Below are positions 1 to 55,530 of a stretch of 64,000 bases of DNA, in pieces. Both the position numbers and the translations under genes were made by a program. The DNA comes from Parachlamydiales bacterium (lineage in GTDB: Bacteria > Chlamydiota > Chlamydiia > Chlamydiales > JAJFMK01). The notes under the pieces are model-generated. The model ran no database searches. It worked only from the letters and a program-made list of their open reading frames with translations, and was not told the origin of the DNA. The DNA is taken from contig CAVXVG010000026.1 in assembly GCA_963765145.1 (NCBI GenBank), forward strand, positions 218,769 to 282,768, in the 5' to 3' direction. Each line of letters opens with the position of its first letter. The first letter of the stretch is position 1.

Positions 1-2887
1 CATAAAAAGCACCTGTGACAACATCGACGGGGTCAGAAACAAGGTTAGTTCCCAATTTGTGGCCAGGTCGGACATCGGCAGTCAACCATGTCTTCTGAAT
101 TTGTTCCGTTACTTGCTGATTGGTGGGAGTTAGCTTTGGAAGAGAAAGGAGGTCGTTAGAAATTTTAAAAAGAGTGAAACCGTTTTTGTAAGGAGATAAC
201 TTTGTATCTACAAGAAAATTTGGCGGAAGGGGCGAGCCATAGCCTCCATGTATAAAATGGTCGTGGTCAGAAATGAGGGCAGCGCTGAAACGTGGATTAA
301 AAATCAAAGTGCCTATCCCCCTATATGATGGTGGATTTCTTCCATTTGATATGAGTTCCGGAGTCATGTAGGCATAGGAAAGAGGGCTACTTTTTGGATC
401 TTCAAAAACCTCTTTTAAAATCGCCCATTGTCCTTTAGAAAGGGCGCGAAGTTGAAGAAATGGGATTTTGTCTAACTGAGAAAAACTCTCTTTAGTTAAA
501 GCTAGTATGCCACGATCTTCTCTGTGTGCATTTTCTAACAATTTTACTGTCGAGACCGGATGAGAATCCTGGAAAAGATCTCGTAAAATTTGATGCTCAT
601 TAGAAGAGTTGTTGATCGCCAGATGATTTTGAAGTTGTCCTCCTAAAACGGTTTTTAAGGGTGTTGGCTCATCTAGATAAGTTGTATAAAATTGCATGTC
701 GACTTGGGGGAAAACGAGTTCTCCGGTCGACAGGTCAGGGGAAAGTTTGGCAAGCCCTACAGCAAAGCAAGTAATGGGAGGTATTTTATGTAATGCAGCT
801 AATATTTGTTCAGCCCTGCTACATTTTTCAAAATAGGCCATTCCCATGAAGGAAAGAAGATGATGAAGTCTTTTAGTTTCATCTTTTTCGGTTTCATAAG
901 CTTTTTGAAATAGTTCGAGGTGTTTTGTGGTCACCCTTCCGGTATGAAAACAAAGTGCTGTACGGGTTCCCCGCGTAAAGGAAAAGGCCTTTAAAGGTTT
1001 GTCATTGAAGCACACAGTGAGGGAGAGCGTAGAGTCATATGCATCTAGAGGTAATACAAGGCTCTTTCCTTGGACATCCTCCATTTGCAAACGGAATTCG
1101 GAAGGAGAAAAAGAGAGCTCCATGATCCCTTCATTCAAATTAGGCAATGGAAGAGAAATAGACCTTCTTTTATAGGGGTTTTCGCAAGAACCGACTGTGA
1201 TCTGCATCAATGACGGCTGGTTTAAGGGAAACCCTTCTTGGTTCTCGGCTTGTTTAGAGGGGCGAGGAAAATCTTCCCAACTATTAAATTGCTTTTTGCA
1301 AATCGTGCGATGAATACCAACATCTTTGATCGATAACTGTTGCTTTTTGAGCTCTTCCTCTAAAAATTGGAGGAATAAAACGGCAGCAGTATCATCTTTT
1401 CCATCCGACGCATTGCCTGTGAGATAATCCTTAATCCATCTGTCGGGGCTTGCAAAAGGATCGGGTAGTACACTGTAAAGATCATATCCTTCCTCTACCC
1501 GGATTTCTTTAATCCATGGATAAAGGACGATTTGTTGATCCCCATCATGTACTAACACCCCAGGAAAGGCGAGCTGGATCTCTTGTCCATCTGGTAAGTC
1601 GGTAAGCAATAATTTCCTAACTAAATGGCTTGGAAGAGATACACAGAAAGTTGGAGGAATCAAAACAGCGTTATAACCGGCAATCTCTAAAAGATGGAGG
1701 AGAAAAGCACATTGATCAGAGGGGGAACCTTGTCCTTCCAGAAAAGTCATTAAGGGGCTTCGCTTGTAAAGAGGTTCTATAAATATTCCTCCATTATTTT
1801 TTAGCCCGATGAGATCGAGTTCGATCTCGTTTTGAACATACTGGGCTAATGAGATGGGGTCTTTTCCCATATCTTGAACAAACTGAACAAGGACAGGATG
1901 TTTTTTATCATTGGAGCAAGGAACGGTGGGAGCAGATAGTGCAATCGATTGTTTGGATAGGGGCTCTAAGAAGCTCGACAAAGCAGGTTTTTTTAACATC
2001 CCTAATTGCCAAGGCGGCGGCTCTAAAAAATGAAGAGCGTACAAAAGCTTTTCGCCTGAAAAAACCTGGAAGCTATAGTTAGGATAGACGGCTTTCTGTG
2101 CAATTAAATATTGATTTTCAGAAATATATCCAATGCGTAGATCAAGGCCATATTCCTTTGAAAGGAACGTTTTGGGGATGTAAAGGAGTCCATCTTCTTT
2201 CAAATGCAAATCCCATCCTTGGCCTGAAGGGGAAGGTAGAGAGATATTCTCTTCGTAGAGCAGCTTTTCCTGTTCGTAAACTTTGACAGTCAGCTCCGGA
2301 GAGTCACTTTGAACTGTGGTTTGGTAAAACTGTTGGGTATAGAAGGTGTGATCAGATTTTGAGGTGAAATAAAACAGATCCCTTCGCTTTTTCTCCCTTT
2401 GCAAAGTGGCGTCCAAACTCAAGGGAATATGGGCAGGCTCTTTTCTGCTCGGAATTTTTTTCAATTGCAGCTTTGGTAAAAGCTCTCTTGCTTCTTTTTG
2501 GGCGTTAGAAAGATGGAAAATATTGTTGTTTAGAAGCACTGCAAGTTGTTCACATCTTTTGAGAGTTATCTCAGCATCTATTCGGATGTCTTCGATCTTT
2601 GCTTTAAGATTCTTTTTCGCTTCACTTTGGCTAAGGATCCGTAAGATTTGTTCTAGGTTTTGCTTGGATAGAATGACTTCAGCTAAAGCGCGATGATATT
2701 TGTCGAGACGTTCGTCAACCAGTTGGAAATCACACCGATCTGCCTCTTTTATCAACTGATCGTGATTTTTGATCCTTGTAGCAGCAGCTTCTCTATGCTC
2801 TCTACAATGTTTTTCGTAGCTGTTTTCGGAGAAGAGGAGGGTGGGAACTATAAGGCAGAGGGATAGGAGGGAGTAGAAAGTCTTCAT
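1..2887 (-). CDS. large secreted protein, N-terminal 962 codons only (C-terminus lies beyond position 1); possible transglutaminase-like cysteine-protease core
   Basis: The minus-strand frame is open from ATG 2887..2885 to the window edge. It is absent from the ORF track because no stop lies inside the window. Hand translation of the start gives MKTFYSLLSLCLIVPTLLFSENS, which is signal-peptide-like. Hand translation of 1667-1741 gives LEGQGSPSDQCAFLLHLLEIAGYNA, resembling the G-x-C-x-x-F-A nucleophile motif of transglutaminase-like proteases. The + strand ORFs at 1849-2696 are short and overlap it. Confidence 0.6.
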   Translation of the reverse strand, partial: MKTFYSLLSLCLIVPTLLFSENSYEKHCREHREAAATRIKNHDQLIKEADRCDFQLVDERLDKYHRALAEVILSKQNLEQILRILSQSEAKKNLKAKIEDIRIDAEITLKRCEQLAVLLNNNIFHLSNAQKEARELLPKLQLKKIPSRKEPAHIPLSLDATLQREKKRRDLFYFTSKSDHTFYTQQFYQTTVQSDSPELTVKVYEQEKLLYEENISLPSPSGQGWDLHLKEDGLLYIPKTFLSKEYGLDLRIGYISENQYLIAQKAVYPNYSFQVFSGEKLLYALHFLEPPPWQLGMLKKPALSSFLEPLSKQSIALSAPTVPCSNDKKHPVLVQFVQDMGKDPISLAQYVQNEIELDLIGLKNNGGIFIEPLYKRSPLMTFLEGQGSPSDQCAFLLHLLEIAGYNAVLIPPTFCVSLPSHLVRKLLLTDLPDGQEIQLAFPGVLVHDGDQQIVLYPWIKEIRVEEGYDLYSVLPDPFASPDRWIKDYLTGNASDGKDDTAAVLFLQFLEEELKKQQLSIKDVGIHRTICKKQFNSWEDFPRPSKQAENQEGFPLNQPSLMQITVGSCENPYKRRSISLPLPNLNEGIMELSFSPSEFRLQMEDVQGKSLVLPLDAYDSTLSLTVCFNDKPLKAFSFTRGTRTALCFHTGRVTTKHLELFQKAYETEKDETKRLHHLLSFMGMAYFEKCSRAEQILAALHKIPPITCFAVGLAKLSPDLSTGELVFPQVDMQFYTTYLDEPTPLKTVLGGQLQNHLAINNSSNEHQILRDLFQDSHPVSTVKLLENAHREDRGILALTKESFSQLDKIPFLQLRALSKGQWAILKEVFEDPKSSPLSYAYMTPELISNGRNPPSYRGIGTLIFNPRFSAALISDHDHFIHGGYGSPLPPNFLVDTKLSPYKNGFTLFKISNDLLSLPKLTPTNQQVTEQIQKTWLTADVRPGHKLGTNLVSDPVDVVTGAFY

Positions 2888-3017
2888 TCGTTAATCTCCA
2901 AACATCAAAAGACTGGAAGGTTGTATCAGACTTTCTGTTTCAAAGCTATCTATATAAATTGACTTTTCTTCAGTTATAAATTAATATCGCAGGCCCAACA
3001 TAACATAAGGAAATATT

Positions 3018-4946
3018 ATGTCCCGAATCGATGTTGGTACAGACAGATACAGTGTTAATTTTGATACATTTGAAATAAATTCGGAAAAATCTAAGAACCA
3101 CCTCAAGCTAGAAAATAGAGTAGCCCAAGCTGCTAAAGGTTCAATTAGCGCCTACAGCAGAGGAGAACTCTCGCTAAGCGGAGCTACTTTTTCTAATGTT
3201 AATTATGGCTCAAGGTTCTTCGTCGATTCACCCTCGACCTTCCCTGGTGGCACCTTGGTCCTTATGGATGCTCCCTTTTCTATGAATTCCACAACTAATC
3301 TAATTACCCCCCTAGAGTTAGTTGAAAGGTACAAAAAAAACTCGATAGGTCAGGATCCTATCACATGTGCCTTGAGATTCGCAGATTACGATGCTGTTCT
3401 TGCCATCGCTGACTATAATTATGAAGAGTCAAAAGGGAGCTCTCAATATAGCGAAGTATTGAATGCAGTACTGAGAAGAATCATACTAGGTGACGCCCCC
3501 ATAGTTTTCCTTGATCTCAAGGAAAAAGAGCAATTTATCATCTTGAAATTATTTGATCGTTTGATTAATTCCGGCAAAGTTTCTCCTAAAACCGATGCAT
3601 CCTCTCATATCGATACAACCGGATGCTTACTACTGAAGTTTCAATTCTTTGATTTACTCGAAAGGCTTCTTGCTGCTGGCTATGACATAGACCAAAGCTA
3701 CGGACAATTACTCAAGGAGGCAATACGAAATAATGATGAAAAAGGAGTCAAGTTCCTTTTCGAACATGGAGCTAAACTAGAAAATGGATTTGGGCATGAT
3801 GAACTGCACGATGCGTTGCAAAAAGGCAATGTTACCATCGCTAAATTACTTCTCGAAAACGGTGCAGATGTTCATAAACAGTATGAAGAGCATTCTTTAC
3901 AGTATTCTCTAGTAGATATAGCTGATAGATGTGTTGCAAAACCTTTTAGAAGTCAGGCTATCAAACTTCTAGAATCCTATGGTGCTGTTTCAAATGAAAC
4001 AGAACGAGTCAATCTATTGCTTAGCCGCTTTGAGAAAACCAGCGAGCAATTCTCCCCTGTTAAATACTGTCTCTCAAACCAAAAATATAGGTCTGCAAGG
4101 GATTTACTCTGCTTAATCAAAGAGAGGCAAGAGCTGTTTGAGATTCTAGGCTTCTTTTTCGAAAATGATCCTGACATTCTCGAAAGGACATTTACTGGCA
4201 TAAGCCCTTTTTGTGAAGATGAAGGTGCTTTCCTTGATAAATTGCTTGATATAGCATTTGAATTAGATGTTACTCCGGCTGATTTCAATCCTTATTTCCA
4301 AACATTTTGTAAGATTGGAGATGGCCCAATCGTACCAATTATCAAACGACTTTTGGACTTCGGCGTCGATCCTAACCAATCAGGTGGAATAGGAATTGCT
4401 ACAGCTGCGTGGTTTAACCAACAGGATTTAGTAGATTTGTTCATTGAGTATGGAGCCAAGCTAGACCTTCAACATAACCCCCTCTATGCAGCAATGATGA
4501 ACGGAAACATCTATATAGCTGAGCAACTCCTCAAGAAGAGCGCAGACATTGATAAGGACGATCTGCTGCTTACGACAATCTTGTTAGGCAAATTCGAATA
4601 CAGTCCATTTCAAGTCACAACTCTGTCTGAGCTGGCCGTCATCTACCAAAATCGGGATTTAATAAGAGACTTGAAGAAGGGAGTATATTCTCATAACCAA
4701 GAAAGCCACCTTAATAGGATTGCCTTCTTGCTAGAGAATGGGGCTGATCCGAATAAGCCACCAAAAGACGAGCCTTTCAGCATCCTTTATTCAGCTCTTT
4801 CCTTGCCTGATCACGATAACCATGTTTGTGAATACAAAAAATCTGTTCTCGATTTACTCGTCCAATATGGTGCAAAGCTCACCTCCAAGGATGGTGTTGT
4901 TAAATTCCTGGCAGAAAAATACAGAATAGATTTAGAGAGGGTTTAA
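3018..4946 (+). CDS. ankyrin-repeat protein (effector candidate)
   Basis: 642 aa with repeated ANK signatures: LFEHGAKLENG, LLLENGADVHK, LLDFGVDPNQ, FIEYGAKLD, LLENGADPNKP and LVQYGAKL. There is no signal peptide. The gene looks AT-richer by eye than the neighbouring housekeeping genes. Confidence 0.85.
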   Translation: MSRIDVGTDRYSVNFDTFEINSEKSKNHLKLENRVAQAAKGSISAYSRGELSLSGATFSNVNYGSRFFVDSPSTFPGGTLVLMDAPFSMNSTTNLITPLELVERYKKNSIGQDPITCALRFADYDAVLAIADYNYEESKGSSQYSEVLNAVLRRIILGDAPIVFLDLKEKEQFIILKLFDRLINSGKVSPKTDASSHIDTTGCLLLKFQFFDLLERLLAAGYDIDQSYGQLLKEAIRNNDEKGVKFLFEHGAKLENGFGHDELHDALQKGNVTIAKLLLENGADVHKQYEEHSLQYSLVDIADRCVAKPFRSQAIKLLESYGAVSNETERVNLLLSRFEKTSEQFSPVKYCLSNQKYRSARDLLCLIKERQELFEILGFFFENDPDILERTFTGISPFCEDEGAFLDKLLDIAFELDVTPADFNPYFQTFCKIGDGPIVPIIKRLLDFGVDPNQSGGIGIATAAWFNQQDLVDLFIEYGAKLDLQHNPLYAAMMNGNIYIAEQLLKKSADIDKDDLLLTTILLGKFEYSPFQVTTLSELAVIYQNRDLIRDLKKGVYSHNQESHLNRIAFLLENGADPNKPPKDEPFSILYSALSLPDHDNHVCEYKKSVLDLLVQYGAKLTSKDGVVKFLAEKYRIDLERV

Positions 4947-7914: not shown

Positions 7915-8036
7915 AAGCGGCTCCTTAAAAATTCCATTCGTACACTAAGCCTACATTTCAGGGCAATCTGAAAATCTTTTATATGTTAAAGGGCGTTCTT
8001 GCATATTAACCACTTGAGGCAGTGAACTTTTTAATT

Positions 8037-8130
8037 CGCAACGCGTTTGGAGCGCTAAACTCTTATTTAGCTTTTACTTTCACTGATAAGTCAAAGCTAA
8101 ACAAGAGTTTAGCGCTCCAAACGCTTCGCG
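8037..8130. repeat. R1 palindromic element (CGCGAAGCGTTTGGAG... family), copy 1
   Basis: A 94-bp near-perfect hairpin: CGCAACGCGTTTGGAGCGCTAAACTCTTATTTAGC...GCTAAACAAGAGTTTAGCGCTCCAAACGCTTCGCG. The same element occurs at 43276-43369 and 54933-55026, and in disrupted form at 37516-38810. Confidence 0.85.
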
Positions 8131-10353: not shown

Positions 10354-10482
10354 ATTCTCTCCTAGCGCTATTAGTTTTAGCCTAGAACAGGGAAATTAAG
10401 AGACAGTTAATCAACCTTAAAGAGATAGAAGATTTTCCCTTTACTCTGCGGAAGAAAAAGCTCTCTGAACAGTGATGAATTA

Positions 10483-10518
10483 CCGAACAAGGCCGTTCCT
10501 TGCTCCAAACGCTTTGCG
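10483..10518. repeat. R1 solo end (ACAAGGCCGT + TCCTTGCTCCAAACGCTTTGCG)
   Basis: It matches the right-hand pieces of the disrupted R1 copy (38523-38532 and 38789-38810). It abuts the stop codon of the LysM gene. Confidence 0.5.
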
Positions 10519-10984: not shown

Positions 10985-11110
10985 CAGCAATTCCAGCCAA
11001 TTTTTTACATAACCCAGGGTTGCGTCACCCTTTCAGGGTTTCCTTACCCTGGGCTACATTCCTTCACCCCATGCTGGGGTGCTTCCTCTCGTTTTCAGCG
11101 GGAATTGCTG
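10985..11110. repeat. R2 element (terminal inverted repeats CAGCAATTCC / GGAATTGCTG), copy 1
   Basis: 126 bp with the core CCCAGGGTTGCGTCACCCTTTCAGGGTT..CCCTGGGCTACATTCCTTCACCCCATGCTGGGGTGCTTC. Other copies lie at 52833-52964 (same orientation) and 63226-63505 (inverted, carrying an insertion). The right end overlaps the last codons and the stop of fba. Confidence 0.85.
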
Positions 11111-34930: not shown

Positions 34931-35025
34931 ATCTCTCTCCTACTACCCCATTATCATGATAGCAACCTAAACAAGAAATAATAAAAACAAACCATTAAAG
35001 ATTTATGAACAGATTATACAATTTT

Positions 35026-35212
35026 ACCACAGAGGCACAGAGAGCACAGAGAAATATGAGAAAAGTGAGGAAGCTCGAGCTGCAGACTTTTTCTCTCTAT
35101 TTCCACGTCTTTAAGATGGAAAATTCAACAAAATTTCTTTAGAGCATTCATTGCCAGCCTAAATATTCTCATTTTTCTCATATTTTCTCTGTGTTCTCTG
35201 TGCCTCTGTGGT
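35026..35212. mobile_element. R4 MITE-like element, copy B
   Basis: ACCACAGAGGCACAGAGAGCACAGAGAAATATGAGAAAAGTGAG ... CTCATTTTTCTCATATTTTCTCTGTGTTCTCTGTGCCTCTGTGGT. It sits in the divergent cdsU/ychF promoter region. Confidence 0.8.
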
Positions 35213-35245
35213 GAATTATGGTCAATTAAGTTACACTTTCGGCCT

Positions 35246-36340
35246 ATGTCTGGACTATCTTGTGGAATTGTCGGTTTACCAAATGTGGGAAAATCGACCC
35301 TTTTTAATGCTTTAACATCAGGCGCTGCAGAAGCGGCCAACTTTCCCTTCTGTACCATAGAGCCTAATAAAGGGACCGTGCAGGTTCCGGATGCGCGCTT
35401 AGCCATCTTGAGTGGCTTGTCTGGAAGCGCAGCTTTAGTGCCTGCCTATTTAGAATTTGTCGATATCGCCGGTCTTGTAGAGGGTGCCTCTCAAGGAGAG
35501 GGGTTGGGCAACCAGTTTTTGACCCACATTGCCAATACTGACGCGATTATCCACATGGTCCGCTGCTTTGAAGATGAAAATGTTGTACACGTGACCGGGA
35601 CTGTCGACCCGATTAGAGACATTGAGATCATCAAAACTGAGTTGATCCTATCAGATTTGCAAACCGTCGAAAACAGCATCGGACGAGTAGAAAAACAGGT
35701 TAAAACGCGTAAAGAGTTGGTGCCGGTGCTTGAATTGCTCCAGACCATCAAAACTACGCTAGAAAATAACCTGCCGGTTAGCAGCCTCCACTTTAAGCCG
35801 GAACAAGAAGAACTTCTTCGCCCCTATCCTTTGCTAACAAAGAAAAAGGTGCTGTATGTGGCCAATGTCAGTGAAAATGACTTGCCTCATATGACAAACG
35901 CTTTAGTTGAAAAGGTTAAAGAATATGCGGCTAAAGAGGGAAATAGCGTCATCCCGATCTGCGCCAAAATCGAAGAGGAAATTGCCCAGCTTCCTAAAGA
36001 AGAGAGGGGAGAGTTTTTATCATCCCTTGGACTTGAAGAATCGGGGCTTGATCGGCTTGTCAAAGCTGCGTTTGCGATGCTGGGTTTAATTACCTTCTTG
36101 ACCACAGGACAGATGGAAACTCGGGCTTGGACCATCAAGACGGGGACCACAGCACTATTTGCAGCGGGCAAGATCCACACCGATATCCAAAAAGGCTTTG
36201 TCAGGGCCGAAGTGATCGCCTACGACGATTTTGTCGGTCTTGGCGGGCGAAATGGGGCCAAAGAAAAAGGCAAACTCCGCTCCGAAGGAAAAGAGTATGT
36301 CGTTAAGGACGGGGATGTGATCCTCTTTTTGCACCACTGA
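35246..36340 (+). CDS. ychF: ribosome-binding ATPase YchF
   Basis: GIVGLPNVGKSTLFNALT, FVDIAGLVEGASQGEGLGNQFL and a C-terminal TGS domain (AGKIHTDIQKGFVRAEV). 364 aa. Confidence 0.95.
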   Translation: MSGLSCGIVGLPNVGKSTLFNALTSGAAEAANFPFCTIEPNKGTVQVPDARLAILSGLSGSAALVPAYLEFVDIAGLVEGASQGEGLGNQFLTHIANTDAIIHMVRCFEDENVVHVTGTVDPIRDIEIIKTELILSDLQTVENSIGRVEKQVKTRKELVPVLELLQTIKTTLENNLPVSSLHFKPEQEELLRPYPLLTKKKVLYVANVSENDLPHMTNALVEKVKEYAAKEGNSVIPICAKIEEEIAQLPKEERGEFLSSLGLEESGLDRLVKAAFAMLGLITFLTTGQMETRAWTIKTGTTALFAAGKIHTDIQKGFVRAEVIAYDDFVGLGGRNGAKEKGKLRSEGKEYVVKDGDVILFLHH

Positions 36341-37507
36341 TGGAACTTTTTATCACTACACAGGCCCACCTTGAAGAGGTCCTTGTCCAAGAATTAACTG
36401 CCTTAGGCTTCCCAAATGCTGAAATAGGCTTTAGGGGAGTTTATGTTGAAGTTAAGGACATCAAAGATATCTACAGGCTTAATTTGTCTCTTTCGACAGC
36501 TTCAAGAGTGCTTCTTCCGATTAGAAGATCTTCAGTAAGGGACGATAGAGACCTATATGAAATGGCTGCAGACATAGATTGGACCAAGTTTTTAACGCCA
36601 GAAGGCACCTTTTGGATCCATTCTAACGTGAACCATCCCCAGTTACGCCATTCAGTTTATGCAGCACAAGTGGTGAAAGATGCGATTTGCGACCAATTCC
36701 GCGAAGAGTTTGGCACGCGCCCTAATGTGAATAGAGAGACACCAGACCTGTCGCTGAACCTTTTTATTGATGAAAGAGTCGCTATTTTGAGCTTAGACAC
36801 ATCAGGCGAACCGCTTCATATGAGGGGATACCGTCAAGATGGGGGCGAATCGCCTGTCAGCGAAACTTTGGCAGCAGCAAGTTTAAGAATGGCAGGATAC
36901 ACCGGAAACGCAGATCCTTCTCGATCCAATGGCTGGTTCCGGTACATTTCTTGTCGAGGCAGCACTTATCGCCACAAAAACTCCTCCCGGCTGGTTAAGA
37001 CGCCGCTTTGGCTTTTTTGCCCATCCTGACTACAAAGAACTCGAATGGCTAGAGCTAAAAGCCAAAGTTTTAAAAGAAATCGTTCCTCTTGAGCCAAACA
37101 AGATTTTTGGCATCGAAAAAAGCGCTGCGCAAACGAAACTATGCAAAGAAAACTTAAAAGTTGCAGGTTTTGGTGACGTAATCGAAGTAACGCAAGCCGA
37201 CTTTCGCGATGTCGAGCCCGAAATCAAGCCCAACTTTGTGATTGCCAATCCACCTTATGGGGTTAGAATGGAGGAGGAGGCGAGCCTTGCCCCTCTTTAT
37301 CGCTCTTTAGGTGACTTTTTGAAGAAAAAGACAGCTCATCCGGCGACAGGAGCCGTATTAACCGGTAGCTTGCCTCTATCTAAAGAAATAGGCCTAAAAC
37401 CAAGACGACGGATACCTCTTACAACGGGTGGCCTCGAAGCCCGGCTTCTCCTCTTCGACCTATTCTCAGGCTTTAAAAACTCCTTAGAAGAAAACCCCAC
37501 ACTTTAG
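36340..37507 (+). pseudogene. THUMP-domain RNA (guanine/adenine-N) methyltransferase (RlmL/YpsC-like), one +1 frameshift
   Basis: ORF 36340-37029 carries the THUMP part and derails after LRMAGYTGNA. ORF 36929-37507 carries motif I (ILL)DPMAGSGTFLVEAA and motif IV ANPPYG. Removing one base around 36906-36913 joins them as GYTGNAILLDPMAGSGTF. Confidence 0.8.
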
Positions 37508-37581
37508 CATTTTTTCGCGAAGCGTTTGGAGTGCTAAACGGCCTTGTTGCATAATTGTTAATCAGCTTTTCGTTTTTCCTG

Positions 37582-38473
37582 CAGCCTTACAGGCTGCCAT
37601 CTTTATTTTCTGCCCTTAACCTGGGGCGTTGCCCGCAGGCTGTTGCAACTATCCGGCTTTCAGCCGGAAAATCTCTATACACATTTTCATTGGCCTGAAA
37701 GGCCAAAACTGCAACAGCTCAGGGCAACGCCCTGAGGTTATAAGATAAAATAATATTGGCAGCCTTACAGGCTTGCCATCTTTATTTTCTGCCTTTAACC
37801 TGGGGCGTTGCCCGCAGGCTGTTGCAACTATCCGGCTTTCAGCCGGAAAATCTCTATACACATTTTCATTGGCCTGAAAGGCCAAAACTGCAACAGCTCA
37901 GGGCAACGCCCTGAGGTTACAAGATAAAATAATATTGGCAGCCTTACAGGCTTGCCATCTTTATTTTCTGCCCTTAACCTGGGGCGTTGCCCGCAGGCTG
38001 TTGCAACTATCCGGCTTTCAGCCGGAAAATCTCTATACACATTTTCATTGGCCTGAAAGGTCAAAACTGCAACAGCTCAGGGCAACGCCCTGAGGTTACA
38101 AGATAAAATAATATTGGCAGCCTTACAGGCTGCCATCTTTATTTTCTGCCCTTAACCTGGGGCGTTGCCCGCAGGCTGTTGCAACTATCCGGCTTTCAGC
38201 CGGAAAATCTCTATACACATTTTCATTGGCCTGAAAGGCCAAAACTGCAACAGCTCAGGGCAACGCCCTGAGGTTACAAGATAAAATAATATTGGCAGCC
38301 TTACAGGCTGCCATCTTTATTTTCTGCCCTTAACCTGGGGCGTTGCCCGCAGGCTGTTGCAACTATCCGGCTTTCAGCCGGAAAATCTCTATACACATTT
38401 TCATTGGCCTGAAAGGCCAAAACTGCAACAGCTCAGGGCAACGCCCTGAGGTTACAGGATAAAATAATATTGG
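37582..38473. repeat. tandem array of 5 units of 178/179 bp, each unit a long imperfect palindrome
   Basis: Units start (CAGCCTTACAGGCT...) at 37582, 37760, 37939, 38118 and 38296, with a truncated sixth start at 38474. Copies differ by only a few substitutions or 1-nt indels. Confidence 0.95.
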
Positions 38474-38628
38474 CAGCCTGTAAGGCTGCCGGAAACTCGA
38501 AAGATCTCGAAGCCATTATGCAACAAGGCCGTGCTTTCACTTTCACTGATAAGTCAAAGGCTAAACGAGCTCGGGAGCACTCCTCTAGTAACTCAGCATT
38601 AATCCAAGAAATTATACTCTTCTTTGTA

Positions 38629-38740
38629 CCTCTGTGTTCTCTGTGCCTCTGTGTTGAAAATGGTGAACTTTCACCTATAAATCTGCTTTGGCAAAAAGCT
38701 AGCTAAATTTTCAACACAGAGGCACAGAGAACACAGAGAG
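38629..38740. repeat. R4-related element, copy C (inside-out arrangement of the CACAGAG arms)
   Basis: CCTCTGTGTTCTCTGTGCCTCTGTGTTGAAAAT ... ATTTTCAACACAGAGGCACAGAGAACACAGAG. The heptad arms face the opposite way compared with copies A and B. Confidence 0.7.
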
Positions 38741-38824
38741 AAAAAGTACTTCGCATGTTACTTCTTGATCCGAGAGACGGCAGTCTATTCCTTGCTCCAA
38801 ACGCTTCGCGAACTATAAAGCTCT

Positions 38825-39913
38825 TTATTCAGTGCGGAGGTTGAAGTGGTTGCCGTTTTCGTGCTGTAAAGCGATGGTTTGCTGACTAAACTGAGGATTG
38901 ACAACCTCTTGGAAGTCGATAGGCTTTCCGTTATAGATACGAAAAATCTTTACACTTACTTCGTAGATGGTGCTGATAGCATAAATTTCGGCCCTAGTTC
39001 CGAAAAAAGCATTTTTACCGGCTTGTTCCAGGTATTTGTCTACGTCGAGTTTAAGAATCTTTTCATGACCGTCTTTGAGGCTAGTCATTTGTCCTTCAAC
39101 ATCCATTCCCATTTCACGGATGGTTTCAAGGCTTGCTAGCTCTTGCCCATATTTAAAGGTTGCTGCTTTTTTGGTATCATCAATAGCATCCTTAAAATGT
39201 CCTTTAAGAATACTGTCTGAATCTTTATTTGCTTTCATCCAATCGACAGCTTTCTTTCGGAGGGTAGCATGGTCGACCTCTATATTCTTAGCTTTTTTAA
39301 GGCCGAGAGCAAGGGCGTGGTAAAGGCAGTTGCCATCATTATCGACTTTTATAGTGAAACTGGGGTCGACGAAAACATCTGGCTTAAAGGTTAGCACGAA
39401 GCGTAACGTTTCTTTAACCCTTTGATACGCTTGGATCGCTTTGAAATGAGCTTTTTTAAGGTGGACGTTATGCATCCCTTCAAAAGCGGTGATTTGGGTT
39501 TGTAATTGCTTGGCCAGTTCTTTAGGGTTTTGGTGATCAACCATTTGATTGCAGAGCTTGACCAGCTCCCCAGCGTCCTTTTTTAACGTTGGAAAACGAG
39601 TTTCATCATCTTCTTTGGCTTGTATTTGGTAGTAAAATCGGTGTGTAGCCAAGTGGCTTAATACAATGAGAGCCGACAGGAGAGGAATGATGAGGGTCGC
39701 AACACAGACTGCTTTGAAGGCAACGGTCTTCCAAGTGGTCTTTTTCTCCTCTTCCTTTAAGATTTTGACTGAATTAGTATGGTCGACAACAATGTAACTT
39801 TTGTTGCCAATATGCCAAAAACCTTGCAAAAACTGATAGGTGTCTTTGGCAGGCTGCGGCCATAGAGAAAACGCGTCGGTTATTGGAATATAAGGGTTTA
39901 TACTATTAGTCAT
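38825..39913 (-). CDS. OTU-family cysteine protease (deubiquitinase-like) with an N-terminal TM anchor
   Basis: The catalytic Cys motif is VDNDGNCLYHALALGL and the C-terminal His motif is ENGNHFNL. A TM segment (AVCVATLIIPLLSALIVLSHL) is present. 362 aa. Confidence 0.85.
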   Translation of the reverse strand: MTNSINPYIPITDAFSLWPQPAKDTYQFLQGFWHIGNKSYIVVDHTNSVKILKEEEKKTTWKTVAFKAVCVATLIIPLLSALIVLSHLATHRFYYQIQAKEDDETRFPTLKKDAGELVKLCNQMVDHQNPKELAKQLQTQITAFEGMHNVHLKKAHFKAIQAYQRVKETLRFVLTFKPDVFVDPSFTIKVDNDGNCLYHALALGLKKAKNIEVDHATLRKKAVDWMKANKDSDSILKGHFKDAIDDTKKAATFKYGQELASLETIREMGMDVEGQMTSLKDGHEKILKLDVDKYLEQAGKNAFFGTRAEIYAISTIYEVSVKIFRIYNGKPIDFQEVVNPQFSQQTIALQHENGNHFNLRTE

Positions 39914-43275: not shown

Positions 43276-43369
43276 GCCGAAGCGTTTGGAGCGTGAAACT
43301 CCCGTTTAGCTTTCACTTTCACTGATAAGTCAAAGCTAAACAGGAGTTTAGCACTCCAAACGCTTCGCG
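43276..43369. repeat. R1 palindromic element, copy 3
   Basis: GCCGAAGCGTTTGGAGCGTGAAACTCCCGTTTAGCTTTCAC...GCTAAACAGGAGTTTAGCACTCCAAACGCTTCGCG. It lies between two convergent gene ends. Confidence 0.85.
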
Positions 43370-43397
43370 AGGGCTGTAATTCGAAAGTGCAGATCAC

Positions 43398-43751
43398 TTA
43401 GAGTTTTTTGGACCATTCTGTTTCGTTAAAGCCGGTGAACCCAAAGTCATTTCCTAGTAAGAAAGGGCGTTTAACAAGCATGCCGTGCTGACTTAGTAAC
43501 TCTAGAGCTTTGTCACTGGTTAGGTGTTCAAGTTTTTCCTTGAGCTGCAGTTCTTTAAATAGTAGGCCAGATGTGTTGAAAAGCTTTTTTAAATTACCGT
43601 TCTGATGGGTCAGCATCTTTTGCAGCTCTGCAATAGATGGGGGTTCTTCAGTGATTTCTTTTACGGTAACCGAGGCTCTATGCTTCTTTAAAAAAAGTAA
43701 GGCTGCCTTGCAAGTCGTGCATTTTCCATAAACATAAATGATCATTTTCAT
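43398..43751 (-). CDS. ArsC/Spx-family thiol-redox protein
   Basis: MKMIIYVYGKCTTCKAALLFLKKH carries a CxxC motif, followed by LVKRPFLL. The track start at 43844 would overlap the tRNA-Leu gene, so the ATG at 43751 is used. Confidence 0.75.
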   Translation of the reverse strand: MKMIIYVYGKCTTCKAALLFLKKHRASVTVKEITEEPPSIAELQKMLTHQNGNLKKLFNTSGLLFKELQLKEKLEHLTSDKALELLSQHGMLVKRPFLLGNDFGFTGFNETEWSKKL

Positions 43752-52832: not shown

Positions 52833-52964
52833 CAGCAATTCTCCCCAGCCTTTGAATTGCCCATACCCAGGGTTGCATCACCCTTTCAGGGTTACTTTAC
52901 CCTGGGCTACAATCCTTCACCCCATTCTGGGGTGCTTCACTTTTTTTTACAGAGGGAATTGCTG
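52833..52964. repeat. R2 element, copy 2
   Basis: CAGCAATTCTCC...CCCAGGGTTGCATCACCCTTTCAGGGTTACTTTACCCTGGGCTACAATCCTTCACCCCATTCTGGGGTGCTTC...GGGAATTGCTG. It ends 1 nt before the ATG at 52966 of the next gene. Confidence 0.85.
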
Positions 52965-54347: not shown

Positions 54348-54929
54348 ATGATTGCTCGTCCCAAAATTTTAGCATTTGCAGGAAGCCTGCGTAAAGATTC
54401 TTACAATAAAAAGTTGATAAGGATCGCAGTAAAAGGAGCCGAAGAGGCTGGCGGAGATGTCCGTTTAATCGATCTTTTAGATTACCAACTCCCTCTTTAT
54501 AACGAAGACATTGAAAGGGATTCAGGGGTGCCAGAAAAGGCTAAAGAGCTGAAAAAAATGATGATTGAAAGCCAAGGATTTTTGCTTTCATGTCCAGAAT
54601 ATAACAGCTCAATCTCAGGTGTATTAAAAAATACAATTGACTGGGCCTCTAGGCCTGCTACTCCCGATGAAGAAGACCTGATTTGTTTTAAGAAAAAGAT
54701 AGTGACCTTGATGAGTGCTTCACCTGGTCCTTTAGGAGGGTTGCGAGGACTTGTGACAGTTCGCTCCATCTTCGGTAACATCAACTGCATTGTCCTTCCC
54801 AATCAAAAATGCATCTCTAAGGCGTTCGATGCCTTTAATGCTGACGGGTCATTAAAAGATCCGAAAGCACAAGAAAGTGTACTCCAGCTCGGCCGCGACC
54901 ACGTCAACTTTTTGAAAAGTCTAGCGTAA
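54348..54929 (+). CDS. NAD(P)H-dependent FMN reductase family oxidoreductase
   Basis: ILAFAGSLRKDSYNKKL and CPEYNSSISGVLKNTIDWASR. 193 aa. Confidence 0.8.
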   Translation: MIARPKILAFAGSLRKDSYNKKLIRIAVKGAEEAGGDVRLIDLLDYQLPLYNEDIERDSGVPEKAKELKKMMIESQGFLLSCPEYNSSISGVLKNTIDWASRPATPDEEDLICFKKKIVTLMSASPGPLGGLRGLVTVRSIFGNINCIVLPNQKCISKAFDAFNADGSLKDPKAQESVLQLGRDHVNFLKSLA

Positions 54930-54932
54930 GTA

Positions 54933-55026
54933 CGCGAAGCGTTTGGAGTGCTAAACTCCTGTTTAGCTTTCACTTGCTAGTGAGAGTGAAAGCGAAACAG
55001 GAGTTTAGCACTCCAAACGCTTCGCG
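54933..55026. repeat. R1 palindromic element, copy 4 (most perfect hairpin)
   Basis: CGCGAAGCGTTTGGAGTGCTAAACTCCTGTTTAGCTTTCACT..AGTGAAAGCGAAACAGGAGTTTAGCACTCCAAACGCTTCGCG has stems of roughly 40 bp. It lies between convergent stop codons at 54929 and 55045. Confidence 0.9.
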
Positions 55027-55044
55027 TATTTTTTCAGCGCGTAG

Positions 55045-55530
55045 TTATTTCGTAATGGTAATTTTGACGATCTTTTGTGTCTCAACTGGCTTGTCGTGAT
55101 GGTCGGTTTTTGTTGTCTCGATTTTTTTGACAACTTCGTAGCCGGCTGTTACTTCGCCAAAAATGGTGTGGTTGCCATTGAGCCAAGGGGTTTCGGCCGT
55201 TGTGATAAAAAACTGGCTTCCGTTGGTGTTAGGACCACAGTTTGCCATCGCAAGAAGACCGGGCTTATCAAAAGTTAGGTCTCTGTGACATTCGTCTGGA
55301 AAGGCTTTTCCAAATGTTGATTCTCCGCCACGGCCTGTGCCGGTCGGATCGCCGCCTTGTACCATAAAATTTTTGATGACACGGTGAAAGATTACATTGT
55401 TGTAGTAGCCTTTCTCAGCCAACGCAATAAAGTTTTCAACAGCTTTAGGTGCTTTTGCAGGAAATAGGGTGATGGTGAAACTGCCTTGCGTTGTCTCCAT
55501 CACAATTTTGGGAAGAGGTTCTTTTGTCAT
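55045..55530 (-). CDS. peptidyl-prolyl cis-trans isomerase, cyclophilin type
   Basis: FHRVIKNFMVQGGDPTGTGRGGES and NGSQFFITT. The start is placed at MTKEPLPK (55530), but the alternatives 55575 and 55500 cannot be excluded. Confidence 0.9.
   Translation of the reverse strand: MTKEPLPKIVMETTQGSFTITLFPAKAPKAVENFIALAEKGYYNNVIFHRVIKNFMVQGGDPTGTGRGGESTFGKAFPDECHRDLTFDKPGLLAMANCGPNTNGSQFFITTAETPWLNGNHTIFGEVTAGYEVVKKIETTKTDHHDKPVETQKIVKITITK

Follow-up and report, generated by a model that had tools for sequence, protein, structure and literature searches.

A tandem array of hairpin modules in a Parachlamydiales bacterium is probably the amplified core of a small mobile element related to Y1 transposase ends

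In the bacterial interspersed mosaic elements known as BIME-2, inverse pairs of repetitive extragenic palindromic (REP) sequences occur in multiple tandem copies that are conserved within a locus and vary in number between strains, and a two-step spread has been proposed, in which transposition or recombination is followed by local amplification (Ton-Hoang et al., PMC3333891). Tandem reiteration of REP dimers has also been described (Di Nocera et al. 2013, PMC3733652). The REP-associated tyrosine transposases (RAYTs), which carry the motif NP(L/V)(R/K)xG, are always located between two inverted REPs (Nunvar et al. 2010, PMC2817692). In TIRtrons, Y1 transposases lie between long, multi-palindrome terminal repeats that have repeat families of their own, and such systems have been reported from bacteria that include the Planctomycetes–Verrucomicrobia–Chlamydiae (PVC) group and Acidobacteria (Di Nocera et al. 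2013, PMC3733652). Insertion sequences (IS) of the IS200/IS605 family have neither terminal inverted repeats (TIRs) nor target duplications (PMC2817692). Here, we analyse a tandem array of hairpin-forming repeats in a Parachlamydiales bacterium (GenBank assembly GCA_963765145.1, contig CAVXVG010000026.1, positions 218,769–282,768 of the forward strand) and compare it with these systems. This stretch of 64,000 nucleotides (64 kb) is hereafter called the window, and positions are counted from its first nucleotide.

We consider it likely that the array represents the core of a small non-autonomous transposable element and was amplified within it, that its modules come from the ends of a Y1 transposase gene, and that its organization is like that of BIME-2. 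The array consists of hairpin modules of the type that forms the inverted ends of a Y1 transposase gene; elsewhere, the same pair of modules (the doublet) is found as a single-copy element with terminal repeats and target duplications; and the five near-identical copies at the window locus are missing from a relative. Related loci that were retrieved for comparison are designated by L numbers (e.g., L140).

Tandem Repeats Finder reported one array, at 37581–38490 (period of 178, 5.1 copies, 98 per cent matches, and a score of 1758), and no other large tandem array in the window. The five units, which begin with CAGCCTTACAGGCT, start at 37582, 37760, 37939, 38118, and 38296 and are 178, 179, 179, 178, and 178 bp long, respectively; the difference in length is one T within a TT run. 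Their alignment contains five variable columns (one single-T indel and four substitutions), and any two units differ at one to three positions. A partial sixth unit start, CAGCCTGTAAGGCT at 38474, is the same small hairpin that opens every unit (hp0, see below), with its loop inverted. Since 178 is not divisible by three, the array has no continuous reading frame across its units. The array is also unlike a CRISPR locus, in that the whole 178-bp period is repeated at 98 per cent identity and without unique spacers. A single unit is predicted to fold into a long interrupted hairpin on either strand, with −82.6 kcal/mol on the plus strand (z = −8.7) and −81.2 kcal/mol on the minus strand (z = −7.6), and none of 200 shuffled sequences was as stable. 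The two halves of one unit are ~70 per cent complementary; that is, its plus and minus modules are ~70 per cent alike. Neither BLAST nor a covariance model of the module (R1) detected further copies of the unit in the window outside the array.

Most of this architecture had been recognized in an initial annotation, which was made from the sequence alone. The array layout and the five unit starts that it gave are exact, and its truncated sixth start corresponds to hp0. It had also correctly described copies that differ by a few substitutions or 1-nt indels, a unit that combines two inverted half-modules and small local hairpins, the folding of either strand into a long interrupted hairpin, a gene-free setting (the array lies between convergent gene ends at 37507 and 38825), and the lack of any other tandemly amplified repeat in the window. 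Its suggestion that the amplification was recent is reasonable, given the one to three differences between copies and an empty orthologous site in a relative.

Within each unit, one ~90-nt, three-hairpin module occurs twice, in convergent orientation. From 5′ to 3′, the module consists of hp0 (GCAGCC-TTAC-GGCTGC), ~22 AT-rich bases, hp1 (an 8–9-bp stem with a GTT loop), the sequence CTGTTGCA, 4–5 further bases, and hp2, which has a stem of 4–6 bp. In the first plus-strand module (37616–37677), hp1 is CCTGGGGC-GTT-GCCCgCAGG, followed by CTGTTGCA and by the hp2 sequence CCGGCT-TTC-AGCCGG; the other copies are located at 37795–37856, 37974–38035, 38152–38213, and 38330–38391, and each plus module matches R1 with 59.3 bits (E = 3.5e-14). 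The first minus-strand module (37681–37740) has CTCAGGGC-GTT-GCCCTGAG as hp1, again CTGTTGCA, and GGCC-TTTCA-GGCC as hp2; its other copies, at 37860–37919, 38039–38098, 38217–38276, and 38395–38454, likewise match R1, and the scores of the minus modules are 65.7–68.3 bits (E about 1e-16). At the unit boundaries, hp0 has the form CAGCCT-TAC-AGGCT (37582–37595, 37760–37773, 37939–37952, 38118–38131, and 38296–38309), and the terminal copy at 38474–38487 has the inverted loop GTA. The array thus contains five plus and five minus modules in strict alternation and, because neighbouring units share one hp0, reads hp0 (+)(−) hp0 (+)(−) ... hp0; the inverted loop of the last hp0 is what would be expected if it belongs to the final minus module. 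A T-rich run follows hp0 on both strands, and the hp0 sites score as terminator-like on both strands. Weak promoter-like hexamers occur once per unit on the minus strand and represent one 9/12 match multiplied by the array.

The inverted modules are linked to a transposase gene. When all open reading frames (ORFs) of the metagenome loci were clustered without prior assumption, a protein of 150–157 amino acids emerged as a recurrent neighbour, encoded about 50 nt from the modules in five loci. The protein belongs to the Pfam family Y1_Tnp (E about 1e-27) and scores 78–80 bits against the NCBIfam IS200/IS605 model NF033573, for which the cut-off is 55. Its best relative with a solved structure is the ISDra2 TnpA, to which it can be aligned at the HUH motif (HVH) and at the catalytic tyrosine (RKYIQTQ). 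Its annotated homologues come from Parachlamydiaceae, Chlamydiales, and Simkania negevensis, and the JGI annotation reads 'REP element-mobilizing transposase RayT'. Inverted R1 modules flank the Y1 gene in six loci (L030, L056, L114, L134, L140, and L141, the last of which is from S. negevensis), with inverted flanks of about 90–240 nt. In L030, L056, L114, and L134, the minus module lies to the left of the gene and the plus module to its right, and one hp0 adjoins the ribosome-binding site and the other the stop codon; L140 and L141 share the arrangement of the modules around the gene. Because inverted copies flank the Y1 gene in six loci, the modules are REP/TIR-type transposase ends. L140 is situated on a 2.6-Mb contig of an organism whose SctU protein is at least 90 per cent identical to that encoded in the window and whose gene order matches. 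In L140, two nested inverted pairs of modules surround the Y1 gene, which is the only ORF between the terminal repeats of the element.

These terminal repeats also enclose the array. The 15-mer GGCCTTGTTGCATAA has exactly two copies in the window, inverted with respect to each other and located on either side of the array (37540–37554 and 38516–38530). The left terminal inverted repeat is GGCCTTGTTGCATAAT (37540–37555, plus strand) and the right one, as read on the plus strand, is ATTATGCAACAAGGCC (38515–38530, minus strand); together they delimit an array-bearing element of about 990 bp (37540–38530). The same 15-mer brackets the single units of L044 and L077, whose elements measure about 250 bp, and also the 1.07-kb element with the transposase gene in L140. 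It is identical at 13 of 15 positions to the inverted repeat of IS903B (GGCTTTGTTGAATAA), an element that makes 9-bp target duplications. An exact 9-bp direct duplication, GTTTAGCAC, surrounds the elements in L044 and L077, and the flanks of the L140 element (GCGCTAAAG and GTGCTAAAG) form a direct duplication at eight of nine positions. The insertion site is identical in every case: it lies at GTTTAGCAC in an arm of a dispersed palindrome, element A. At the window locus, the inner part of element A starts with GTGCT, and the same bases end the sequence before the left terminal repeat, which looks like the remnant of a 9-bp target duplication that was followed by a 16-nt deletion. With IS903-like terminal repeats and a 9-bp target duplication, the outer shell has the hallmarks of a miniature inverted-repeat transposable element (MITE) of the IS903 group. 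Units in L044, L077, L094, L040, and L118 are 84–92 per cent identical to the window units and occur in different flanks, and the doublet is therefore a dispersed element in this lineage. A search for units outside the locus, as the initial annotation had proposed, yielded single units in relatives and none elsewhere in the window.

The array itself is missing from a relative with a 2.6-Mb contig (L012): at the orthologous site, the end of the RlmL gene and the next gene are 25 bp apart. For the closest relatives (L001, L017, and L019), the contigs end in repeats before reaching the array. In about 100 kb of sequence from relatives around the array locus, R1 found no match.

Beyond this lineage, a 20-mer from hp1, used for an exact-match scan of species-representative genomes, occurs in six loci of Verrucomicrobiota (Luteolibacter, Pedosphaera, and Chthoniobacteraceae) and Phycisphaerae that have a second small hairpin in common, and R1 recognizes these loci with E-values of 2e-8 to 4e-4. 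Matches of the 20-mer in Glutamicibacter, Bacteroides, and Embleya lack the hairpin context and were dismissed as chance. A metagenome scan with the exact pattern GGGCGTTGCCC-N3-4-GCTGTTGCA, which is common to both unit halves, retrieved at least 120 stretches with G+C contents of 0.33–0.66; about eight matches inside coding sequences were attributed to chance and excluded. A covariation analysis, another check proposed in the initial annotation, revealed compensatory changes in the stems. In an alignment of 116 distinct module copies, 88 per cent of the hp1/hp2 cells pair, compensatory double changes number 41 and 48 in the two hp1 pairs that the search pattern had left free, and covariation is also seen in hp2. 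The covariation score of 0.283 compares with 0.129 in shuffled alignments, none of 500 of which reached it, and with 0.013–0.108 when the pairing partners are slid. The family as a whole conserves hp0 at a distance of about 22 nt upstream of hp1, with compensatory variants of its stem (GCAGGC/GCCTGC, GTAGCC/GGCTAC, GCAGTC/GACTGC, and CGCGCC/GGCGCG-type stems). In the 64-kb window, R1 recovers only the array, all 10 half-modules of which match with E-values of 1e-14 to 1e-16; outside it, R1 recognizes the module in over 100 metagenome contigs.

The module family occurs as singles, dimers, and groups. Close pairs of modules in 112 metagenome loci are mostly inverted (46, versus 7 direct pairs), and a chlamydia-like metagenome genome (sample Ga0207126) carries module copies on at least 13 contigs. 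Tandem amplification is found elsewhere in the family, too: L109 has a head-to-tail array of a 66-nt unit in 3.9 copies (3408–3665), and in L056 a 113-nt unit is present in 2.4 copies directly beside the transposase gene (1336–1606). Four modules in alternating orientation occupy L085 1192–1702 and are too diverged for Tandem Repeats Finder to report. A scan of viral contigs for the module returned no matches, and a phage origin is therefore not supported. No Rfam 15 family matches the array or the related loci at either gathering or permissive thresholds; within the window, Rfam identifies three tRNAs only, and the array region yields only sub-threshold hairpin and weak small-RNA look-alikes. 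A literature search with the hp1 sequence string gave no match, and neither this three-hairpin module nor its presence in chlamydiae nor a five-fold tandem array of it was found in the searchable literature.

How the array may have arisen can be outlined as follows. By analogy with the enzymes of the IS200/IS605 and RAYT groups, the Y1 enzyme would recognize the hairpins as single-stranded DNA. The doublet would have entered an IS903-like terminal-repeat scaffold that was mobilized in trans, and the five near-identical copies would have originated recently. The palindromic hp0 copies at the unit boundaries may have allowed amplification, by unequal recombination between them or by replication slippage. 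Alternatively, an HUH enzyme could have copied a circular doublet by the rolling-circle mode; a (−)hp0(+) doublet that is opened at hp0 gives exactly hp0(+)(−)hp0. As a side effect, the hairpin-rich array would probably act as a bidirectional stop that terminates or stabilizes both convergent transcripts.

Several findings weigh against a mobile core made of Y1 transposase ends. The 64-kb window contains no Y1 transposase gene. The Y1 protein of the related loci reaches only 29–32 bits with the NCBIfam RAYT model NF047646, which has a cut-off of 80, and the sequence KYIQTQKDHH takes the place of the RAYT motif NP(L/V)(R/K)xG. Neither in the window modules nor in the consensus does a GTAG/CTAC or CGTC/GACG tag stand next to hp1. 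Classical REPs number in the hundreds per genome, typically more than 100, and the module family is of low copy number here; in the window it is confined to the array, and about 120 kb of the L140 relative contains only four modules, all of them around the transposase gene. A 9-bp target duplication with short terminal repeats is the signature of a DDE transposase and not of a Y1 enzyme, and when the window and about 1 Mb of fetched loci were searched by tblastn with the IS903 transposase, no IS903-like transposase was found. Moreover, relative to the terminal repeats, the modules of the single-unit elements are directed inwards and those of the L140 transposase element outwards, so neither element is a simple deletion derivative of the other. 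Finally, the amplification mechanism and the terminator effect are steps that we infer.

One rival explanation holds that the element is a plain MITE of the IS903 group (IS5 family), which was moved by a DDE transposase and whose filling grew by replication slippage, with no involvement of a Y1 enzyme. It overlaps with the explanation that we prefer and differs from it only in who moved and amplified the element. The 13 of 15 identical positions between the terminal repeats and the IS903B end, the 9-bp length of the duplications, and the fact that Y1 transposition yields neither duplications nor terminal repeats (PMC2817692) speak for it. Nonetheless, we regard it as unlikely: the interior is no arbitrary filler, as it is composed of the R1 modules found on both sides of Y1 genes in six loci; the identical terminal repeats enclose, in L140, a Y1 gene as the sole ORF; and an IS903-like transposase is missing from the sequences searched. 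Among the options in the initial annotation, an amplified MITE has gained support from the terminal repeats, the 9-bp duplications, and the single units found elsewhere, and structured small RNAs have gained none. The annotation had added that a dispersed MITE whose array is not conserved in relatives would make the array merely selfish DNA, and this is essentially the outcome. A battery of structured small-RNA genes or some other functional RNA element, to which the transposase link would be secondary, now appears very improbable to us. Both module orientations are present in every unit and inverted pairs dominate everywhere, the orthologous locus has no array, a transposase gene bears the modules as its inverted ends, and Rfam has no match for the array or the related loci, even though the folds are very stable on both strands and the stems covary across phyla. 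The promoter-like hexamers on the minus strand of each unit are one weak 9/12 match that the array repeats. Wobble in the stems has no strand bias (50 G-T versus 56 A-C) and hence singles out neither strand as transcribed and functional; this speaks against an RNA role of one strand, though it does not separate the DNA-level models from each other. Module pairs beside rplI in four organisms (described below) could hint at a conserved role in untranslated regions.

A host-maintained array that binds proteins or insulates, for instance as a bidirectional terminator or, like BIME-2, as a site for gyrase or a nucleoid protein, would account for the position exactly between two convergent 3′ ends and for the terminator-like combination of hp0 and a T-run on both strands at every junction, and BIMEs of Escherichia coli do bind gyrase and integration host factor and affect termination (PMC2817692). 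We nevertheless find maintenance by selection improbable, because a relative has a 25-bp gap at the same gene end and copies that are so nearly identical speak for a recent expansion and against long maintenance; the sequence does not allow a binding protein to be named, and any function would be a by-product of mobile DNA. There is a similarly small chance that the array or its copy number is an artefact of long-read metagenome assembly, through over-extension or collapse of the repeat. The copy number is known from one assembly with signs of indel errors: the methyltransferase gene next to the array looks frameshifted and is split in one related long-read assembly and intact in another, which suggests indel errors, and the 178/179 difference is a single T in a TT run. 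Short-read contigs of the region, moreover, break inside repeats. Against an artefact, single units with identical terminal repeats occur in several JGI short-read contigs, and the module family is tandemly amplified in unrelated contigs. Four substitutions separate the copies, whereas pure duplication of one read segment would give none. An error would in any case change only the number five and not the identity of the element.

The window has a G+C content of 43.5 per cent and contains a type III secretion cluster of the chlamydial type with SctU; SctV and CopN are found in the syntenic relatives. These features agree with an origin from an environmental chlamydia. A look-up of the YchF ORF returned no record. 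To the left of the array lies a gene for an RlmL/THUMP-type RNA methyltransferase (36340–37507, plus strand), which consists of two overlapping ORFs at 36340–37029 (Pfam RlmL_1st and THUMP) and 36929–37507 (UPF0020 methyltransferase). This arrangement suggests a frameshift. The orthologue is intact in L012 (385 amino acids) and also split in L011, and the split could be either a long-read indel error or a real pseudogene. To the right is a gene for an OTU-like cysteine protease (38825–39913, minus strand; Pfam OTU, E = 1.7e-10), and an identical protease protein is encoded on a short-read contig that ends near the repeats.

Element A, the host sequence of the array-bearing insertion, is a palindrome of about 95 bp (CGCGAAGCGTTTGGAGTGCTAAAC ... 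GTTTAGCACTCCAAACGCTTCGCG) that is dispersed in several intergenic gaps. At the array locus, its left arm TTCGCGAAGCGTTTGGAGTGCTAAAC (37514–37539) forms a perfect 18-nt inverted repeat with the right arm CTCCAAACGCTTCGCGAA (38795–38812), and its interrupted inner part (GTGCTTTCACTTTCACTGATAAGTCAAAGGCTAAAC...GGAGCACTCC) is located at 38531–38583, as seen by comparison with the intact copies at 43290–43400 and 54915–55045; all three parts are given on the plus strand. Uninterrupted copies, in which the 9-mer occurs once per arm, are present in the window at 54933–55026, 8035–8130, and 43309–43370, and further sites are at 10478–10518 in the window, at 580–662 in L044, and at 388–461 in L057. Element B is a separate hairpin repeat outside the array (38622–38746), with 40-nt arms (CACAGAGGCACAGAGAACACAGAG) that are 93 per cent complementary. 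It has a second copy in the window (35019–35225) and further ones in L017 (10797–10918) and L077 (about 2390–2430). Short-read contigs of the array region break at element B, for which Rfam gave only sub-threshold miRNA-like hairpin look-alikes.

Several related loci have additional features of their own. In L030 (1146–1260), the Y1 gene has an extra minus module on its right, after which come hp0, a ribosome-binding site, and an ATG that are similar to the beginning of the transposase gene; this stretch may be a truncated second transposase copy, and the arrangement suggests that (+)(−) doublets can form where two transposase elements abut. The L140 Y1 element (2702–3772), which is about the size of IS903, is situated within the type III secretion cluster, between a pair of a YscO-like gene and a 291-amino-acid gene on one side and a SctQ-like gene on the other; despite its IS903-like ends, it encodes a Y1 and not a DDE transposase. 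In L057, from a close relative, a long ORF (about 730–2366) lies just upstream of a single unit, which is wedged between this ORF and a second Y1 element. The Y1 gene of the latter (2734–3204; 37 per cent identical) was rejected as the cognate transposase: it is flanked by 111-nt perfect inverted copies of a different, GTAG-type REP. Classical GTAG REPs form a separate family in the window (52866–52915 and 11012–11062); on the minus strand, they read GTAG-CCCAGGGTAA...AACCCTGGG and are followed by a small CACCCC...GGGGTG hairpin (52866–52936 and 11012–11080, respectively, with the hairpin included). These REPs and the L057 gene indicate that the lineage hosts at least two systems of hairpin repeats and Y1 transposases.

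A restriction of the module family to PVC bacteria was considered and dropped, because a soil group with a G+C content of about 0.53 belongs to the Pyrinomonadaceae (Acidobacteria) according to its L9 protein: the L9 protein of L069, a locus in the same G+C range, is 90 per cent identical to one from a Pyrinomonadaceae metagenome-assembled genome. The soil-group loci (L023, L024, L028, L055, L059, L061, L068, L086, L088, L089, L096, L098, L107, L120, L129, L132, and L135) have about 60 extra conserved bases upstream of hp0 and differ in their downstream flanks. In four contigs, inverted module pairs are found about 180–200 bp from rplI, the gene for ribosomal protein L9 (L021 348–914, L069 204–782, L092 1681–2433, and L123 2–532); the four L9 proteins are 34–96 per cent identical, and the pairs could mark a conserved insertion site or a conserved 3′-end element.

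We thus explain a conspicuous chlamydial structure by mobile DNA and not by a new RNA gene or a regulatory array. The case shows that environmental chlamydiae carry systems of the REP/BIME kind that are tied to a Y1 transposase and whose end module recurs across several phyla. Since such arrays break short-read assemblies and mimic structured-RNA candidates, the covariance model and the transposase link should be useful in annotation. Modules associated with Y1 transposases (in one genome, together with the Y1 gene itself) inside IS903-like ends with 9-bp duplications are an unusual combination, and this nesting could help show how hairpin repeats spread and become amplified. A bolder proposal, which we hold to be possible although rather doubtful, is that the module is the conserved cis-element of a distinct IS200-like Y1 clade that, unlike IS200/IS605, uses inverted ends, of the kind formed by RAYTs and REPINs (REP doublets forming hairpins) but evolved independently, with the perfect head-to-tail arrays as rolling-circle products made by the HUH enzyme from circularized doublets and the IS903-type ends as a vehicle; this clade may span Chlamydiota, Verrucomicrobiota, Planctomycetota, and Acidobacteriota.

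Compared with the described systems, the array is most like BIME-2 in its layout: two hairpin variants stand in inverse orientation, alternate with short linkers, and are repeated head to tail, with near-identical copies per locus. As in BIME-2 and in REPtrons (Y1 genes between inverted repeat copies), the repeats are extragenic and located at gene 3′ ends, and the repeat family also flanks, in inverted orientation, a gene of the Y1/HUH type; the REPtron arrangement itself is present in the six loci outside the window. Unlike BIME-2, the repeats have a very low copy number in the sequences of this lineage that were searched, and the array is contained in an element with terminal repeats and target duplications. 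The hairpin palindromes that characterize REPs all form in the module (hp0, hp1, and hp2), but it has no sequence similarity to E. coli REPs and is an ~90-nt, three-hairpin structure instead of a single hairpin of 30–40 nt. The module is therefore not a classical REP, given also its lack of a GTAG/CGTC tag and its low copy number in these sequences. In contrast to REPtron transposases, the Y1 protein lacks RAYT motifs and groups, by sequence, with the IS200/IS605 clade, which places it outside the RAYT clade. The REPINs of Pseudomonas, the subject of work by Bertels and Rainey in 2011, are reportedly dispersed in hundreds of copies and usually not tandemly amplified. Like them, the doublet is a non-autonomous inverted pair of a transposase-flanking hairpin repeat that can form one long hairpin, and doublets far outnumber direct pairs; in contrast to them, it sits inside another element and was amplified in place.

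The ends of the array-bearing element resemble IS903 in 13 of 15 positions of the terminal repeat and in the 9-bp duplications, whereas the sole gene-carrying copy (L140) encodes a Y1 protein, and no DDE transposase occurs in the sequences examined. The transposase sequence (Pfam Y1_Tnp, NF033573, and ISDra2 TnpA) and the hairpins in the ends are shared with IS200/IS605 and with palindrome-associated transposable elements (PATEs). However, the flanks here are inverted copies of an asymmetric three-hairpin module; because IS200/IS605 elements have neither inverted ends nor target duplications, this is not a canonical member of that family. TIRtrons, or TIRYTs, share more with it: a Y1 gene is flanked by long, multi-palindrome inverted repeats that are unrelated to GTAG REPs, and these repeats are also found singly, in dimers, and in groups, although the GGGGWSAS motif of some described terminal repeats is absent here. 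By analogy, the module would be the counterpart of a REP or terminal repeat, the doublet that of a REPIN, and the alternating tandem array that of E. coli BIME-2. The array is mobile-DNA debris; its module and transposase system fits a TIRtron best, and its outer shell fits best a MITE of the IS903 type.

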